In this document: in pieces, positions 9,897 through 53,774 of the stretch
Position numbering within the stretch: position 1 is the stretch's first letter
Layout of the letters: each line of letters begins with the position of its first letter
Source: an uncultured Thermococci archaeon
GTDB taxonomy: Archaea; Methanobacteriota_B; Thermococci; Methanofastidiosales; Methanofastidiosaceae
Length of the DNA: 64,000 bases
Reading direction: 5' to 3'
Assembly (NCBI GenBank): GCA_964521515.1
Contig: CAZFRW010000001.1
Span: forward strand, 7,639 to 71,638
Made by a program: the position numbers and the translations under genes
The notes under the pieces: generated by a model
What the model saw: only the letters and a program-made list of their open reading frames with translations
Database searches by the model: none
Told to the model about the DNA's origin: nothing

Positions 9897-10661
9897 TTAC
9901 CTATTGAACTTATGGCCACATTCTGGGCAGAAGTTAGACGAAGGCTGGACATTTTTTTTACATTTAGGGCAGTAAAAGTAGTCTTTATCCGAGGGTTTAA
10001 ATGGTGAGGCCTTTGACATTTCTCCCAGTCTTTTTGTCAAGAAGTATACTAGAATTATTAAGATCGGTAAGAATAGGAATGCCAATATAGTTTGAGTGAA
10101 TAGGACAAAATCGAATAGACCGTGTGAGAACGCAGCTATCGCAAGACCTTTATAGACTAGGCTATTATTCTTAGGTGAAGAAAATTTCGCCTTTCCTACG
10201 TAATACCCAACTATACCTGAAAATCCTGCGTGGCCTAAACAACCTGTTATTGCCCGCATGAGAATCAGCGAAGCGCCATACTGTGATATATATAAGAAAT
10301 TTTCAAAAGTTGCAAATCCTAAAGCTGCTACTACAGAATATAACATTGCATCGATTGGCTCATTAAATTCCTTTGACTTTAGGGCATATACCCTCATAGC
10401 CAAATATTTTGAGATTTCCTCAACAGGCCCTATTACAAAAAAAGCCCCCAAAAACAGTAAAAGAATCCCTGCTTCATCAATAGAGAATGGCATCAGCAGA
10501 CTATTTAGTATACCTGCTGGAATTGTTGAAATCATTCCTAGGATAAATGTTATTATAATCAGTTTTTTTGGCTCAGGTTCATATTTATCTTTTTTATAAA
10601 AATACCATACCCAGAATAGTCCTGGGGCAAGCGCAATAGCCAGAAGTGTTAGAGCGTCCAT
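9897..10661 (-). CDS. PrsW-family intramembrane metalloprotease with C-terminal zinc ribbon
   Basis: Multi-TM protein with the EExxK-like GPVEEISKYLA and FSHGLFD motifs of PrsW. C-terminal CPKCKK...CPECGH zinc ribbon. Confidence 0.65.
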   Translation of the reverse strand: MDALTLLAIALAPGLFWVWYFYKKDKYEPEPKKLIIITFILGMISTIPAGILNSLLMPFSIDEAGILLLFLGAFFVIGPVEEISKYLAMRVYALKSKEFNEPIDAMLYSVVAALGFATFENFLYISQYGASLILMRAITGCLGHAGFSGIVGYYVGKAKFSSPKNNSLVYKGLAIAAFSHGLFDFVLFTQTILAFLFLPILIILVYFLTKRLGEMSKASPFKPSDKDYFYCPKCKKNVQPSSNFCPECGHKFNR

Positions 10662-48909: not shown

Positions 48910-50148
48910 GTGTTAAGAGGGGATCAAATTAATTATATTTTAGCTCTGATAACAATTATTATTGGATTTATACTTGGAGTAACTATAATTAAATACCTGA
49001 CAGTACATCAGAGTAAGATTAGAATATATTTTCTGTTGCTATTTTCTGAACTTATTATTTTTGTTTCTCTCATCTATTTTAATCGAGATGAATTTGGAAT
49101 TGTCTTAACTTTGAGCTTTCTATTATCGGTCCTAGTTGGATATAATTTTATGACTTATATGGTGCTATCTATTAAAGATAAGAGACATATCCCTAAACTT
49201 ACTAGGAAAAAAGGGGATTTAGGGAAGGGCCATACTGCTATTATTTATTTTACTCATGGTGAGCCTGAAGATTATGATCCAATAGGTTGGATAAATCAGT
49301 TCAGGGAGTTTGATGAGCAGAAGATTAAATTTATACCATTTTTAATTAGACCAATATTTCTCTATATGTTAAGAAAAAAATATATTCATGTTGGTACAAG
49401 CCAACATAAAAAAATGCACACAAAGATGATGCAATCTCTTGAAAAAAGATTTAGAAATGAAGGAGATTCAACAACTAAATTTTATCTTTCATTTCTTGAA
49501 GATGAACCAAGGCCGGGCGCGGCAGTTATCAATGCTTTAAATGGAGGAGCAAGCAGAATAATTGTAAGTGAAGTATTTCTTACTATTTCTAATCATACTG
49601 TTGAAGGCGAAAAATTAGTTAAGAAACTCAATTTTGAGGACTACGGAGTTTCAATTTTATTTACTGGCCCCTTGTGGAATTCAAAAATATTACAAAGTAT
49701 GTTTGTTGAAAGGGTAAACAAACATCTAGGCAAAACTGATAAGAAAAAAGTTGGTGTTTTGCTTGTTGGTCATGGGCAACCTAAAGAATGGGACATTGAA
49801 TGGCCGACTGAAACAGAACAGGAGATAAAATTTAGAAAAGATGTCTTAGAATTATTTGTTAAAGATGGTTACGATCGAAAGAATCTTGATCTTGCTTGGA
49901 TGGAGTTTAGAGAGCCATGTACCTCAGAGGCCATTAAAAAATTATTAGAAAACAAAGTAGAAAAGATTTTTTATTTTTCAGCTGCAATAAGTGCAAATAG
50001 TATCCACAGCATGTGTGATGTGCCTAAACTTATTTCTAAGTGTGAAATACCTAATAATATCGATGTTATAAATCTTGAAGCTTGGAATGATGATCCTTTA
50101 GTAATTGAAGCAATTAAGGAGAAGATTGATAGAGTTAGGTTTGATTAA
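48910..50148 (+). CDS. membrane-anchored long-form class II chelatase-like protein (CbiX/CbiK/HemH-like double domain)
   Basis: Three N-terminal TM helices are followed by about 310 aa with two half-domains. Each half opens with a hydrophobic strand plus HG-x-P (TAIIYFTHGEP and VGVLLVGHGQP). The C-terminal LEAWNDDPLVIEAIKEKI resembles the ferrochelatase/CbiX tail. Confidence 0.5.
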   Translation: MLRGDQINYILALITIIIGFILGVTIIKYLTVHQSKIRIYFLLLFSELIIFVSLIYFNRDEFGIVLTLSFLLSVLVGYNFMTYMVLSIKDKRHIPKLTRKKGDLGKGHTAIIYFTHGEPEDYDPIGWINQFREFDEQKIKFIPFLIRPIFLYMLRKKYIHVGTSQHKKMHTKMMQSLEKRFRNEGDSTTKFYLSFLEDEPRPGAAVINALNGGASRIIVSEVFLTISNHTVEGEKLVKKLNFEDYGVSILFTGPLWNSKILQSMFVERVNKHLGKTDKKKVGVLLVGHGQPKEWDIEWPTETEQEIKFRKDVLELFVKDGYDRKNLDLAWMEFREPCTSEAIKKLLENKVEKIFYFSAAISANSIHSMCDVPKLISKCEIPNNIDVINLEAWNDDPLVIEAIKEKIDRVRFD

Positions 50149-50228
50149 TAATTTTAATAAATAATTTCTATTTATATAAGTGGATTATAGTCGAAACTCT
50201 TTTATGTATATTAAATATTAATTCAGAT

Positions 50229-50639
50229 ATGAAAACAAGGATGTTTGTTATTGCCGATACTTCATCACTAACACCCCAAACTGTTATTAACTATATTGTA
50301 AGTCTCGGAAAGACCTTGAACATTAAAGATACTTGTTATGGCATCATGGTTGAAGGAGATGATGATGTTGTTGAGAATGTCACACTGAAGGTCAGGGAAA
50401 AATTTGATGCGGATATATTCTCAAAACATCGAGCTTACCCAATAGGCGATGAAAGAAGATGCAGAGCCACAAGAGGTGGAGGAGCAAGGCCTGGCTATTA
50501 TTTCTTACTAGAAGAATATAAATTATTACCTCTAATTTCTAATGTTTTAAAAGAAGGAAGATTTAAAACTCTAGATAAAAAGAAGAAAAAACCTGTTGAT
50601 GTAGATTTACTGAAGAAAGCGATTAAAGAGATGGTGTAA
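50229..50639 (+). CDS. small Cys/Gly-rich protein, candidate methanogenesis-marker (Mmp5/Mmp6-type) protein
   Basis: 136 aa with a Gly-rich RCRATRGGGARPGYY segment. Placed by position in a cluster resembling the mmp3-6-5-15-17-7 arrangement. Family not verifiable by eye. Confidence 0.35.
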   Translation: MKTRMFVIADTSSLTPQTVINYIVSLGKTLNIKDTCYGIMVEGDDDVVENVTLKVREKFDADIFSKHRAYPIGDERRCRATRGGGARPGYYFLLEEYKLLPLISNVLKEGRFKTLDKKKKKPVDVDLLKKAIKEMV

Positions 50640-50641
50640 AT

Positions 50642-51076
50642 ATGAAAGTTTTCATTTATCCTCCAAACAGCATGATATTACAAGACTTAGTTGAAAGATT
50701 TGGGCATACCCCACTTGCCCTTGCAAAAGAGATAGAAAGAAGAGTAAATGATCCAGAGCTTGACTCTCCTCCTATGAATATAACTGAAATTGATGTAAAA
50801 GTAGGGTTAAAGTATGCTGCAATAGAAGTTCCATCAGGCGTCAGAGGCAGACTTGCAATGTTTGGGCCTTTAATCGATGAGGCAGAAGCAGCAATAATTG
50901 TAAATAACTTTCCATCTACATTTGGGTGTATGGCATGTGCTAGGACTAACGAACTTACTATTTATTTGATCAAACAAAAGAAAGTTCCAACATTAGAACT
51001 TGATTATCCAACAAATGAAGAAGAAGTGGAAGACTTTATTGGGAGAATTAAGAGTTTCTTGGAGGGGTTAAAATGA
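50642..51076 (+). CDS. small CxxC protein, candidate methanogenesis-marker (Mmp5/Mmp6-type) protein
   Basis: 144 aa with GCMAC cysteine pair. Starts 3 nt after the previous gene and overlaps the next by 4 nt, so it is tightly coupled. Confidence 0.35.
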
Positions 51077-52290
51077 TTAAGATAGCTCAACTTTCATGTG
51101 GTAATGATTACAGCGGTATCCAGAAAGAAATTGAAAAAGCTGCAGAAACAGTCGGCGCTAAAATAGTCTTTCCCGATGTTGACATTGATTTTGATGATGC
51201 TATAAAAGATTTTGGTTTCGATCCAGTAAGTCCTGGATTAAAACTAATGGTTGCAAGGGCAAAAGCGTTGGCAGATAAAACATTTGAAGCAGATGCTGTA
51301 TTAATAGCTACATGTTTTAGATGTGCGGAAGGCGCTTTAATAAGAAATGAGCTAAGAAGATATATTCAGAAGCACACGAAACTTCCAGTAGTCATGTATT
51401 CATTCACTGAAAATACAAAAGCAAGCGTTCTTTTAATAAGAATGGAAGCATTAGTTACAATCGTACAAAGAAAGGATCTATTGGCTCGTGAAAGACAAGT
51501 TGGAATCACAATGGGGCTTGACTCTGGATCAGCTACAACAAAGGCAGTTATAATGCAGGATAATCAAATTGTATCCAAGTTCTGGCATCCAACTTCAGGA
51601 GTACTTGAGTCAGCTGAGAAAGCAGTAAATGAAGCACTTAAGCTTGCTAAGATGGACTTTAAAGATATAGAGGCAATTGGAACAACAGGGTACGGCCGAT
51701 ACATTCTGGGAGAACATTACAAAGCGAAGCTTGTCCAGGAAGAAGTAACTGTAAACTCTAAAGGAGCGGCTTTTCTTGCTAACAGACAGAAAGGAGAAGC
51801 CACAATTCTTGATATCGGGGGGATGGACAACAAAGCAGTAACAATCAAGGACGGTATACCTGATAGTTTTACAATGGGTGGAATATGTGCCGGCGCATCA
51901 GGAAGATTCTTAGAGACTGCCGCAAAGAGGCTTGGTGTCGAAATAGCTGAATTTGGAGAGCTTGCAGCAAGGGGTGACCTTCACAAAGTTCCAATGAACA
52001 GCTACTGCACAGTTTTTGGTATCCAAGGACTAGTTTCTACTTTAGCTGAAGGGCACAGCAAAGAAGATGTAGCCGCAGCGGCTTGCAGAAGTGTTGCTGA
52101 ACAAATTTATCAGCAGCAACTTCAAGAAATTGATGTAAGATACCCAGTTATTCAGGTGGGCGGTACATCACTTTTGAAAGGCTTAGTGAGGGCAATTGGA
52201 GATATCTTAAATACCGAGCCTTTAGTTCCTCCAAACTCACAGTATATAGGTGCGGTGGGTGGAGCCTTACTCTCCTCAGGATTTATCTAA
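51073..52290 (+). CDS. BadF/BadG/BcrA/BcrD (HgdC-like) ATPase, CoA-substrate-specific-enzyme-activase type; candidate Mmp15
   Basis: The C-terminal roughly 260 aa have the ASKHA-fold motifs of HgdC-type activases ([17 protein letters not shown]...[12 protein letters not shown]...IQVGGTS). The N-terminal roughly 140-aa extra domain has a CFRC pair. Confidence 0.65.
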
Positions 52291-52303
52291 AGGTGACCGA
52301 ATA

Positions 52304-52846
52304 ATGGAAATAATAGTTGAAGGGCTACCAGCACAAGAATCTGATGGTTATGTCGCTCTGATAAACGATATAATGAGAGAGTTTGAGATACGAAGAAGCA
52401 TCGAAAAAGTATACTTCTATGGTGATACTGAAAATTTTGTTTTTATTACTTCAATCAGAATAAAAAAAGTTCTTGAACCTCTAAGGATAGAAGATGTGGC
52501 CATATATAATCAAGAAAAAGAAATCCTATCGGTAGAGGATGAGTTTTACGTTCCAAAGATATTATCCCTATTATGGTCCATTTCAAAAGAAGGGATTGAA
52601 CAAGCCGAACGAACTGAAATTAAGTTACCTGCTGATCTATTTGCTAAAATAAAATCTGAAGTTGTCTACTACCCTACGGAAGATTTGAAAAAAAACGTCC
52701 AAGAAGCAATCAACAGGGTTTTACCCGAGGCCGCAAGAATCAAATATATCCTTTCTGCAGAAAAAACTATTACAGTAGCATCAAGTGAGAACGCATTATC
52801 TGAAGAAAGTAAAAAGCTTGCTCAAAAGTTTCATGAGAGGGACTAG
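52304..52846 (+). CDS. hypothetical protein, candidate Mmp17-type
   Basis: About 180 aa from ATG 52304, preceded by GGTGA. The track ORF starts at 52250, inside the previous gene. Assignment is positional only. Confidence 0.35.
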   Translation: MEIIVEGLPAQESDGYVALINDIMREFEIRRSIEKVYFYGDTENFVFITSIRIKKVLEPLRIEDVAIYNQEKEILSVEDEFYVPKILSLLWSISKEGIEQAERTEIKLPADLFAKIKSEVVYYPTEDLKKNVQEAINRVLPEAARIKYILSAEKTITVASSENALSEESKKLAQKFHERD

Positions 52847-52856
52847 GTGAGAATCA

Positions 52857-53774
52857 ATGTTTAAGATGGCATTGTTTGAAGGTGGGCTCCACAGGGCAGA
52901 TGAGCTAGAAGACCTTGTAGATGACCTTGGAGGATTTCTAATTCAAAAGAATGTGACTCAAATTGATATTACACTCATTATAGCTGTGCCTGGTGAAGAT
53001 TATGAGCTCGTAGTAAAAAAAGCAAAGGAACTAAGAGGAAAGATTGTAGAAGTTCCACTTGCAGGCTCAGAAATCACAATTGTTGCACCATCTCTTGGTA
53101 AGCACCATCTACCCCATCCCGTGTGCGATATCTCAGAGTACATCCGAAGGAATGGTGCTGTAACAAACGTCATGGGGCTTGCAAGAGGGGTGGGCCAGAG
53201 GATAAATCAGATAACTGCGACAGAGAAAGGCATGATTGAAGAAGCTGACGTGGCCGTCTACTCTTTGGGAAACTTCAGCAGGTGTCTTAGAAAAAAGACC
53301 CATCTTTACACAGATATTGACATCCCCGTAGTTGTTCTTGGGGGCCCTCAAAAGTTTAATATCGAAGGACTTGAATATTACGTGGGTGGTATTGGCAGAA
53401 GAAGCCAAAGATTGAGACAGAAATTTGATCTTGATATATTTGATATAATGGTCGGTGAAATATCAAAGGCAGTTGAAAAAAGAAGGAGAGAAGTCGAGGA
53501 GGATCCTTTGATACTAGAGCCAATATACCTTAAAAAAATTCTTGAAGAAAACGTAGAAGGTATAGATAAGATTATTTCTCCAATCCCCATAGTACTCAAT
53601 GTAGATGGTGTTAAGGTAAAAATGCCACTTAATCAGTTCAAGGAAAAGATAAAAAATATTGAATTTGACGGCAGGAAGATTGATGAATACTGTAATATGT
53701 ATCAATCGCCCTATACTGGATTTACAATTCTTAAGATATTTACAAAATCCTATTTTGATTCTCTAAAAAAATAA
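52857..53774 (+). CDS. McrC-like protein, candidate Mmp7
   Basis: SLGKHHLPHPVCDISEY and IPVVVLGGPQK resemble, from memory, the McrC motifs RHITKPVCEIT and VVHLGG. 305 aa. Last gene of the cluster. Confidence 0.5.
   Translation: MFKMALFEGGLHRADELEDLVDDLGGFLIQKNVTQIDITLIIAVPGEDYELVVKKAKELRGKIVEVPLAGSEITIVAPSLGKHHLPHPVCDISEYIRRNGAVTNVMGLARGVGQRINQITATEKGMIEEADVAVYSLGNFSRCLRKKTHLYTDIDIPVVVLGGPQKFNIEGLEYYVGGIGRRSQRLRQKFDLDIFDIMVGEISKAVEKRRREVEEDPLILEPIYLKKILEENVEGIDKIISPIPIVLNVDGVKVKMPLNQFKEKIKNIEFDGRKIDEYCNMYQSPYTGFTILKIFTKSYFDSLKK

Follow-up and report, generated by a model that had tools for sequence, protein, structure and literature searches.

A predicted methyl-coenzyme M reductase activation operon in Methanofastidiosum and its probably independent, chelatase-like neighbour

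The closest described counterpart of the present locus is the methyl-coenzyme M reductase (MCR) activation operon of M. acetivorans, which comprises MA_3998 (component A2) together with the genes for Mmp3, Mmp5, Mmp6, Mmp7, Mmp15 and Mmp17 and which has been validated by RT-PCR. Clustering of the mmp genes in M. marburgensis (MTBMA_c04360-c04410), where nifB follows, has also been described. In M. maripaludis, the Mmp7 ligands of the L-cluster-like Fe-S clusters are numbered H84, C90 and C143 (PMC12176620). The window, that is, the whole stretch of 64,000 nucleotides analyzed here, contains five of these mmp families with the same internal order, mmp6-mmp5-mmp15-mmp17(-mmp7), the same tight spacing and the same Mmp7 ligand residues. 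Unlike the known operon, it contains neither mmp3 nor atwA at the locus, and nifB does not follow. The five genes are preceded by ORF1, a gene for a membrane-anchored class II chelatase-like protein, and the features are collected in Table 1.

Table 1. Features of the mmp locus and the preceding gene (positions within the window)
Feature	Position	Strand	Details
ORF1, membrane-anchored class II chelatase-like protein	48910..50148	+	412 aa, GTG start
Promoter-like element of the mmp operon	50188..50228	+	BRE-like CGAAA 50192-50196, TATA-like TTTTAT 50200-50205
mmp6 (methanogenesis marker 6, DUF2102)	50229..50639	+	136 aa; TIGR03272, PF09875
mmp5 (methanogenesis marker 5, DUF2112)	50642..51076	+	144 aa; TIGR03271, PF09885
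mmp15, HgdC/BcrAD-type ASKHA ATPase	51073..52290	+	405 aa; TIGR03286, PF01869
mmp17 (methanogenesis marker 17, DUF2113)	52304..52846	+	180 aa; TIGR03291, PF09886
mmp7 (McrC paralogue)	52857..53774	+	305 aa; TIGR03274, PF04609

A sequence-only reading had taken six tightly spaced genes on the plus strand (48910-53774) for one functional cluster resembling the Mmp cluster and headed by the chelatase. All six ORFs lie in the same direction, and their coordinates and sizes were borne out. For mmp17, the ATG that gives a 180-aa product was adopted as the start, as annotated in relatives; the mechanical ORF begins with a GTG at 52250. The gaps from mmp6 through mmp7 are 2, -4, 13 and 10 nt, the start of mmp15 overlapping the stop of mmp5 by 4 nt, compared with 80 nt between ORF1 and mmp6. 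Downstream of mmp7, the opposite strand carries a flippase gene of the MurJ/Polysacc_synt type. The window yielded neither a tRNA nor an Rfam RNA. As the same reading had noted for mcr, mtr, hdr and fwd, none of these genes was found among the scanned or synteny-annotated window ORFs of at least 110 aa, and the same holds for cfb, mmp3 and atwA.

The mmp genes were assigned to families by NCBIfam curated cut-offs and Pfam matches, and all five products scored above the cut-offs of their Mmp families. Mmp5 matched TIGR03271 over its full length with 228.5 bits against a cut-off of 140.25 (Pfam, 221.7 bits), Mmp15 matched TIGR03286 with 684.7 bits against 455.75 (residues 2-404 of 405 aligned), Mmp17 matched TIGR03291 with 96.6 bits against 67.1 (Pfam, 110.5 bits), and Mmp7 matched TIGR03274 with 357.7 bits against 349.15 and the Pfam family MCR_C with 341.8 bits. 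The match of Mmp6 to TIGR03272 is borderline (128.0 bits against 125.95), and its Pfam match reaches 116 bits. The BcrAD_BadFG domain of Mmp15 (residues 148-400) is joined to an additional Mmp15-specific N-terminal domain, and the generic activase model TIGR00241 spans just residues 145-400. Mmp5 belongs to a narrow family, with 93 representative clusters in 1.84 billion proteins, and carries C96-x-x-C99, while the cysteines of Mmp6 are C36 and C78. In Mmp7, H84, H87, C90 and C143 are invariant in eight sequences from three orders, and H84, C90 and C143 share residue numbers with the M. maripaludis ligands. Judged by its predicted products, the interval 50229-53774 corresponds to the conserved core of the MCR activation operon described earlier. 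The earlier descriptions of two small cysteine-containing proteins of 136 and 144 aa, an HgdC/BadF-type ATPase with an extra N-terminal domain and a 305-aa McrC-like protein all hold, and the proposed likeness to the Mmp cluster stands for genes two to six; it does not extend to ORF1, which lies outside the operon. The option that the cluster is a diverged relative acting on another substrate is unsupported, the Fe-S ligand residues of Mmp7 being invariant.

The source is a Methanofastidiosum, a methyl-reducing methanogen; Mmp5 is 93-98% identical to the products of Methanofastidiosum loci, and the sequence cluster of ORF1 includes members named Methanofastidiosum. Methanofastidiosales are reported to carry Mcr and have been placed in the McrABG tree in the literature, which fits the suggestion of the sequence-only reading that the organism is a methanogen with MCR encoded elsewhere. 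By homology to the M. maripaludis complex, we infer that the products of the window would contribute to ATP-dependent MCR activation. Mmp7 and Mmp17 would form one complex with McrC, Mmp3 and the ATPase A2, and its [8Fe-9S-C]-like clusters would pass low-potential electrons to F430 and reduce Ni(II) to Ni(I). The HgdC/BcrAD-type ATPase Mmp15 probably uses ATP hydrolysis to power either electron injection or maturation, and Mmp5, with its CxxC motif, and Mmp6 would serve as accessory proteins. McrC, Mmp3 and A2 are not in the window and must be encoded elsewhere in the genome.

The order mmp6-mmp5-mmp15-mmp17-mmp7 is common to Methanocella, Methanomassiliicoccales and all Methanofastidiosum loci, and the order in Methanobacteriales matches up to mmp17. 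Mmp3 was detected in 61 loci, and in Methanocella, Methanomassiliicoccales, Methanobacterium and Methanobrevibacter it is encoded directly upstream of mmp6 (TIGR03268, 434-686 bits), so that the chelatase gene does occupy the position where Mmp3 had been expected. Neither in the window nor in 12 related loci of the Methanofastidiosum lineage was Mmp3 found within 10 kb of the cluster. A2 was likewise not found in these 13 loci, the sole A2-like match being a generic ABC ATPase with 31% identity. The operon begins at mmp6 in every Methanofastidiosum locus compared. Dispersal of the mmp genes, to differing degree, is already known in Methanococcales, and a missing mmp3 neighbour therefore needs no replacement.

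A BRE/TATA-like stretch of 41 bp precedes mmp6, with the TATA-like box centred approximately 27 nt ahead of the ATG. All 12 Methanofastidiosum-lineage loci that were aligned have this element in nearly identical form, the sequence 5' of it is unrelated, and it is kept irrespective of the upstream neighbour (chelatase, transporter, defence island or PHP gene). As the element fits the archaeal BRE/TATA consensus and is conserved, the mmp operon seems to be under the control of a predicted promoter of its own. The arrangement suggests that the mmp transcript is leaderless or has a very short leader.

The position of ORF1 was compared between the window and the 12 related loci, with the slot defined as the region from the PHP-phosphoesterase gene to mmp6. 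ORF1 adjoins mmp6 in the window and in three other loci, in one of which (L012) it is disrupted. In four loci, 0.8-5 kb of unrelated opposite-strand genes (defence, transporter or other genes) intervene between ORF1 and mmp6, and in a further four no ORF1 lies between the PHP gene and mmp6. Thus, 9 of 13 Methanofastidiosum-type slots lack an intact ORF1 next to mmp6. Three basal lineages are without it in a crude neighbour-joining tree, which was built from one 3-kb region and carries no support values. No chelatase match was found at approximately 70 mmp loci from other orders. The chelatase is not a conserved neighbour of the mmp genes, and its role as head of a functional six-gene cluster is contradicted, given that its adjacency varies among siblings in which the mmp genes and the promoter-like element are constant. 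More than 1,400 matches were obtained for the ORF1 family, which is annotated mainly as Chloroflexota; the named matches are from Chloroflexota or Anaerolineae, and a PPDK-like/PlsY/MacB neighbourhood is conserved in five of eight bacterial contexts. Fur and CbiMQO genes recur beside ORF1 relatives. On this comparative evidence, ORF1 is best described as an independent gene, dispensable for the mmp operon and not a functional replacement of Mmp3; it would have entered the variable spacer between PHP and mmp6 by acquisition within one Methanofastidiosum subclade. The locus as a whole is best explained, with a probability of roughly 0.8, as a known mmp operon beside an independent, separately acquired chelatase gene.

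The protein encoded by ORF1 begins with three hydrophobic helices (residues 4-31, 34-57 and 61-86 in the AF2 model; mean Kyte-Doolittle value about 2.0), which lead through a basic linker into two alpha/beta halves (approximately 100-272 and 273-412) in a two-domain chelatase fold, in agreement with the three TM helices and double chelatase domain read from the sequence alone. It also passes the Pfam gathering thresholds of PF00762 (Ferrochelatase; 34.4, threshold 27) and PF01903 (CbiX; 27.6, threshold 22), as its assignment to the class II chelatases had implied. Assignment as CfbA (NF033198) was rejected at 41 bits against a cut-off of 120, with just residues 282-405 covered, and as the ferrochelatase HemH (TIGR00109) at 20.5 bits against 124.6. 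K+R counts of 8 versus 2 in the window protein favour a cytoplasmic catalytic domain. In the alignment with CfbA, H288, E332 and H366 fall on His9, Glu42 and His75, H229 falls on His75 of the other half and forms a second pair with H116, and the N-terminal half has Leu at the Glu42 position. H116, H229, H288 and H366 are invariant in 119 of 119 sequences. Retention of the four CfbA-equivalent His in one chain provides a lead on function. Because this CfbA-like four-His site coincides with recurrent Fur and CbiMQO neighbours, the most likely activity of ORF1 would be divalent metal insertion into a tetrapyrrole at the membrane.

Several other accounts of ORF1 can be weighed against these data. 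If the six genes formed one functional cluster, the chelatase would replace Mmp3 or serve MCR activation or maturation in this lineage; ORF1 does fill the slot that Mmp3 holds in other orders, no Methanofastidiosum locus has mmp3 nearby, and in four genomes ORF1 lies in the same direction 70-90 nt from mmp6, where read-through co-transcription may occur. Against this stand the losses, disruption and separations of ORF1 among siblings, the conservation of the mmp6 upstream element independently of ORF1, a chelatase fold that bears no resemblance to Mmp3, a family annotated mostly as non-methanogen bacteria, and the mmp dispersal mentioned above. The idea is very improbable, the comparative data having largely refuted it. 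Alternatively, ORF1 could be a Ni(II)/Co(II) sirohydrochlorin-type chelatase supplying F430 and/or cobamide in the acquiring Methanofastidiosum subclade, linked to MCR via the pathway rather than the operon, with an ECF CbiMNQO importer perhaps delivering the metal at the membrane. Its CfbA-like four-His site is what would be expected of a Ni/Co chelatase, but the score falls well below the CfbA equivalog cut-off, a tetrapyrrole-biosynthesis gene adjoins ORF1 in 0 of approximately 20 contexts, the dominant bacterial neighbours are those named above and not cobamide genes, and sibling methanogens without ORF1 presumably still produce F430. This assignment is possible although doubtful.

A further account regards ORF1 as a stray gene acquired horizontally, whose product, tethered to the membrane, would bind tetrapyrroles, exchange their metal or remove it, acting alongside lipid and efflux functions; its ligands at the membrane could be hydrophobic porphyrins or tetrapyrroles derived from chlorophyll. 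This account is unlikely, in that the full CfbA-type catalytic His/Glu set, unneeded by a mere binder, is kept, the K+R counts favour a catalytic domain in the cytoplasm, unlike that of periplasmic haem binders, and Staygreen was seen just once. More broadly, ORF1 may found a widespread family of class II chelatases that are tethered to the membrane, keep all four His of the symmetric CfbA homodimer in the cleft of a single chain, use Ni/Co or another divalent metal and are fed directly by membrane importers such as CbiMNQO; the horizontally acquired copy beside the MCR activation operon would then aid F430 or cobamide supply in one Methanofastidiosum subclade. Taken as a whole, this proposal is tentative and rather improbable. 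The preferred explanation, a known mmp operon with an independent neighbour, adds little to methanogenesis beyond a Methanofastidiosum example of a known operon, which in this lineage starts at mmp6 and has neither mmp3 nor atwA attached. Its practical upshot is to keep ORF1 out of annotations and models of the MCR activation machinery.

Tetrapyrrole enzymology could gain from the locus. The large and highly conserved ORF1 family, whose members bear the label "ferrochelatase" or "hypothetical protein" in public records, joins a TM anchor and a four-His CfbA-like site in one polypeptide, its bacterial relatives residing in the PlsY/PPDK-like/MacB neighbourhood and sometimes beside Fur-CbiMQO. 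If active, the family would be a candidate for metal hand-off from membrane transporters to tetrapyrrole metalation. Compared with ferrochelatases (HemH/CpfC and eukaryotic FECH), ORF1 shows approximately 15% identity, has motifs of the CbiX/CfbA type (GHGxP) and is attached to the membrane by N-terminal TM helices. CfbA/CbiX-S, exemplified by M. jannaschii CfbA (PDB 6M25), is a small (approximately 120-140 aa), homodimeric sirohydrochlorin Ni/Co-chelatase, whereas ORF1 is a single chain of 412 aa with two fused, diverged halves, three N-terminal TM helices and a helical insertion of approximately 45 residues bearing H166 and H170. The monomeric class II enzymes SirB, CbiX-L and CbiK are soluble and have the His in one half only (in B. 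subtilis SirB, the other set of His positions is occupied by Arg134 and Leu200), in contrast to the membrane-anchored ORF1 with His in both halves. According to a 2024 study, the four-His arrangement had not been reported for a monomeric class II chelatase found in nature, and the ORF1 family, if active, would provide the natural counterpart to the SirB variants engineered to carry four His.

The six plus-strand ORFs that a sequence-only reading had taken for a methyl-coenzyme M reductase (MCR) activation cluster, headed by a membrane-anchored chelatase (ORF1), were confirmed at their positions in the window. The search against Mmp families proposed in that reading identified genes 2-6 as mmp6, mmp5, mmp15, mmp17 and mmp7, all five products exceeding the curated NCBIfam cut-offs and the Pfam matches (last entry for each gene in the table) concurring; the generic acyl-CoA dehydratase activase model spans just residues 145-400 of Mmp15. 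Spacers of 2, -4, 13 and 10 nt separate genes 2-6, 80 nt lie between ORF1 and gene 2, and for gene 5 the start matching the gene calls of relatives (180 aa) is preferred. The Mmp5 family is narrow (93 representative clusters in 1.84 billion proteins). Some of its representatives are much longer (P0123, 299 aa; P0126, 259 aa; P0141, 581 aa); the Mmp5 domain occupies residues 150-291 in one protein of 299 aa and residues 3-142 in one of 581 aa, which points to Mmp6-Mmp5 and Mmp5-Mmp15 fusion proteins in certain lineages. The L-cluster-like Fe-S clusters of the activation complex from M. maripaludis are ligated or approached by H84, C90 and C143 of Mmp7 (PMC12176620). The window Mmp7 contains H84, C90 and C143, in columns that are invariant across Methanofastidiosum, Methanocella and Methanomassiliicoccales; identical numbering and this conservation point to their equivalence with the M. 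maripaludis ligands. The operon products would work like their M. maripaludis counterparts: Mmp15 would be the ATPase of the cluster, and Mmp7 and Mmp17, with McrC, Mmp3 and component A2 (atwA) encoded elsewhere, would carry the Fe-S relay reducing F430.

An "MCR activation operon" of A2 and Mmp3, 5, 6, 7, 15 and 17 has already been described in M. acetivorans and validated by RT-PCR. In M. marburgensis the mmp genes form a cluster with nifB after it; in M. maripaludis they are dispersed (Nature 2025; PMC12176620). Genes 2-6 are a further example of this known operon. A genome scan with a 4-sequence Mmp5 alignment recovered 80 loci for comparison (with 20 or 9 representatives the alignment diverged too much for this use), among which the order mmp6-mmp5-mmp15-mmp17-mmp7 is repeated in Methanocella and Methanomassiliicoccales. 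The Methanobacteriales order is mmp2-mmp3-mmp6-mmp5-mmp15-mmp17 and then a NifB-like gene, and mmp5 stands on its own in Methanocaldococcus. In Methanobacterium and Methanobrevibacter, Mmp2 (TIGR03267, 512 bits) is encoded ahead of mmp3, and the NifB-like radical-SAM gene directly after mmp17 scores 308 bits with TIGR01290, under the cut-off of 344. In two Methanocaldococcus-type genomes, a CbiA/CfbB-type a,c-diamide synthase gene (PRK06278, 656 bits) overlaps mmp5 by 4 nt. Here a tetrapyrrole-amidase gene is genuinely linked to an mmp gene in a lineage other than Methanofastidiosum; three other Methanococci loci lack this linkage.

Mmp3 (TIGR03268, 434-686 bits) is encoded immediately upstream of mmp6 in the four lineages checked, with A2 (812 bits) upstream of mmp3 in Methanocella. 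It was found in 61 loci and was detected neither in the window nor in any Methanofastidiosum locus of the set; with the Methanomassiliicoccales Mmp3 as homology query, the best 120 matches were all of the Methanomassiliicoccales type. The earlier remark that the chelatase sits at the slot normally held by Mmp3 is therefore correct as a positional statement. Membership of the chelatase in the cluster is a different matter. The window shares a constant synteny with 13 related loci, one of which (L001) comes from the same organism as the window and 12 from others; in it, a minus-strand PHP phosphoesterase gene is followed by mmp6-5-15-17-7 and a minus-strand flippase gene. The content of the slot between PHP and mmp6 varies among Methanofastidiosum-type loci, and this spacer is a variable-cargo hot spot among the species. 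The proposed check for a conserved neighbour in other genomes found ORF1 adjacent to mmp6, parted from it by opposite-strand cargo, or absent, depending on the locus. The 1.44-Mb Methanofastidiosum contig JAXGZJ010000001.1 is among those that lack ORF1 here. No ORF1 homologue was found at mmp loci of other orders in the 80-locus set. A crude neighbour-joining tree of mmp5-mmp7 DNA, without support values, contains three basal lineages without ORF1 and a derived clade with ORF1 and one secondary loss. With a variable slot and constant mmp genes across Methanofastidiosum loci, the comparative evidence speaks against the chelatase as a member of the cluster, and its linkage to the mmp genes appears incidental.

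Features of the window and of compared loci of other genomes (L numbers); bits are followed by cut-offs in brackets
Feature	Coordinates	Particulars
ORF1 (gene 1)	window:48910-50148	412 aa
Genes 2-6	window:50229-53774
Gene 2, Mmp6		TIGR03272, 128.0 (125.95); DUF2102
Gene 3, Mmp5		TIGR03271, 228.5 (140.25); DUF2112
Gene 4, Mmp15		TIGR03286, 684.7 (455.75); BcrAD_BadFG
Gene 5, Mmp17	ATG 52304	TIGR03291, 96.6 (67.1); DUF2113
Gene 6, Mmp7		TIGR03274, 357.7 (349.15); MCR_C
Element before mmp6	window:50188-50228	41 nt
PHP-mmp6 slot, window	window:48826-50228	ORF1 adjoins mmp6 (70-90 nt); likewise L001, L016, L012
PHP-mmp6 slot, L003	L003:3060-3864	ORF1 0.8 kb from mmp6; DUF1508 gene, small CxxC...CxxC ORF (65-67 aa)
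PHP-mmp6 slot, L013	L013:1351-4956	ORF1 3.6 kb from mmp6; CbiM, PDGLE/CbiN-like protein, CbiQ, ABC ATPase, UbiA-family gene
PHP-mmp6 slot, L011	L011:5521-9588	ORF1 4.1 kb from mmp6; OsmC, other unannotated genes
PHP-mmp6 slot, L002	L002:11173-16209	ORF1 5.0 kb from mmp6; DNA methylase, BrxC-like ATPase
PHP-mmp6 slot, L015	L015:1005-2121	ORF1 absent; OsmC fragment
PHP-mmp6 slot, L017	L017:7923-9588	ORF1 absent; SSF symporter
PHP-mmp6 slot, L010		ORF1 absent; small CxxC...CxxC ORF (65-67 aa)
PHP-mmp6 slot, L014		ORF1 absent
Split chelatase gene	L012:8279-9504	92-aa and 259-aa ORFs
Chelatase gene, L013	L013:131-1351
Importer genes, L013	L013:1415-3817 (minus)	CbiM 213 bits
NifB-like gene	L085:12338-13189; L058:12345-13211	Methanobacterium, Methanobrevibacter
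a,c-Diamide synthase gene	L046:8601-9998; L075:8619-9989	upstream of mmp5 (at 9995)
Bacterial ORF1-homologue modules	L004:5087-11762; L088:4160-12519; L090:1631-10552; L091:2681-9997; L092:4942-9345
Staygreen gene	L090:10633-11109	PF12638
ABC ATPase gene	window:16272-17270
HypA gene	window:24456-24818
Repeat-protein gene	window:30801-32435	544 aa

Two of these slots deserve separate mention. The chelatase gene of L012, a Methanofastidiosum-type MAG labelled "uncultured Thermococci", is broken into two ORFs, through either pseudogenization or a fault in the assembly. In L013 (Ca. Methanofastidiosum methylothiophilum BMIXfssc0709_Meth_Bin006), a Ni/Co ECF importer operon is convergent to the chelatase gene, with a UbiA prenyltransferase gene next. 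Directly ahead of the mmp6 ATG, 41 nt (TAGTCGAAACTCTTTTAT...) are near-invariant in 12/12 aligned loci, and the sequence 5' of this element is unrelated among them. Within this stretch, a BRE-like CGAAA accompanies a TATA-like TTTTAT whose centre is ~27 nt upstream of the ATG; by consensus, this would correspond to archaeal promoter geometry for a leaderless mRNA. Scans for sigma-70 promoters and intrinsic terminators gave counts near the shuffled expectation, these models being uninformative for an archaeon.

The Mmp5 of the window is 93-98% identical to that of loci titled Candidatus Methanofastidiosum, and the ORF1 sequence cluster contains proteins named Methanofastidiosum sp. Methanofastidiosales have been reported as methyl-reducing methanogens bearing Mcr (PMC9635834). 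The window (G+C ~36%) otherwise carries housekeeping genes, including those for PFOR, RFC, ArgRS, ThyX, proteasome, exosome, RPA, HypA and a glycine-betaine ABC transporter. Among its ORFs of at least 110 aa, examined directly or through the annotation of syntenic relatives, none was identified as mcr, mtr, hdr, fwd, cfb, mmp3 or atwA, and no tRNA or Rfam RNA was found in the 64 kb. One ABC ATPase was rejected as A2 because it is only 31% identical and its gene sits between those for a glycine-betaine-type substrate-binding protein and two permeases. The HypA nickel metallochaperone gene is solitary, with no other hyp genes nearby. A protein with repeated CarboxypepD_reg/PEGA-type beta-sandwich domains, without NCBIfam match, may be a surface protein.

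The sole novel element is the ORF1 family, for which more than 1,400 homologues were found among 8,000 candidates scored. Members are 52-60% identical to ORF1 over the full length, and those with names belong to Chloroflexota or Anaerolineae, with one archaeon labelled Ranarchaeia. The Methanofastidiosum proteins form one clade (77-100% identity among themselves, 58-69% to all others), a pattern consistent with a single horizontal acquisition. In 5/8 bacterial contexts, the homologue is tightly packed with one or two PlsY-family acyltransferase genes, a gene for a PPDK_N/Rph_4th/PEP-utilizers enzyme (about 780-800 aa) and usually a MacB-type ABC exporter with HlyD-like adaptor; in L091 the chelatase gene overlaps plsY by 4 nt. 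Fur is encoded downstream of the homologue in L006, L089 and L091, and CbiM/CbiQ/ABC in L006 and L091. These neighbourhoods have no bearing on MCR. In one case, the closest non-archaeal homologue has a gene of the Staygreen (Mg-dechelatase) family 4 kb downstream; SGR homologues from Anaerolineae are known to be active Mg-dechelatases (PMC8531759, PMC11006732).

In the AF2 model of ORF1 (pLDDT 83.6), three N-terminal TM helices precede two alpha/beta halves. The full-length profile had no PDB sequence match at E <= 0.01, and alignments with CfbA, the small homodimeric sirohydrochlorin Ni/Co-chelatase, were obtained with the two halves searched separately. ORF1 was rejected as CfbA proper (41 bits vs equivalog cut-off 120) and as HemH (20.5 vs 124.6). 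By phmmer against M. jannaschii CfbA, E332 and H366 of the C-half fall on Glu42 and His75, and H229 of the N-half on His75; H116 (FTHGEP) and H288 (VGHGQP) occupy the His9 position, after strand 1 of the N-half and C-half respectively. An hhalign comparison of the halves gave the same His register, its weak statistics (E 0.055) making it supporting evidence at most. The four His are invariant in 119/119 family sequences; position 332 is occupied by E in 98 of them, by S in 20. Further conserved features, possibly additional sites of metal handling, are a TVHP motif (residues 31-33; H33 in 115/119) in the short TM1-TM2 loop, H108 just ahead of strand 1 and, within a helical insertion in the N-half, the S-x-H-x-x-x-H pair H166/H170 (119/119). 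K+R counts of 8 vs 2 in the window protein favour a cytoplasmic catalytic domain; the family-wide signal is weaker, and the topology is graded no higher because a first family-wide count was poorly framed and a second was limited to 10 sequences.

Beyond the observed family membership, gene order, residue conservation and comparative variability of ORF1, we infer a membrane-tethered divalent-metal tetrapyrrole chelatase, for which Ni or Co is plausible; a tetrapyrrole-binding or metal-exchange protein is a serious rival. The family is worth biochemical attention independent of MCR. According to PMC11301274, a class II chelatase that is naturally monomeric and has four His had yet to be reported, and a further literature search turned up nothing newer. 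From the alignments and secondary-structure positions, the four His of ORF1 would be arranged in one site. A four-His site of exactly this kind is present in the CfbA homodimer, whereas SirB, a monomeric class II chelatase, has Arg and Leu at the positions of the second His pair, unlike ORF1.
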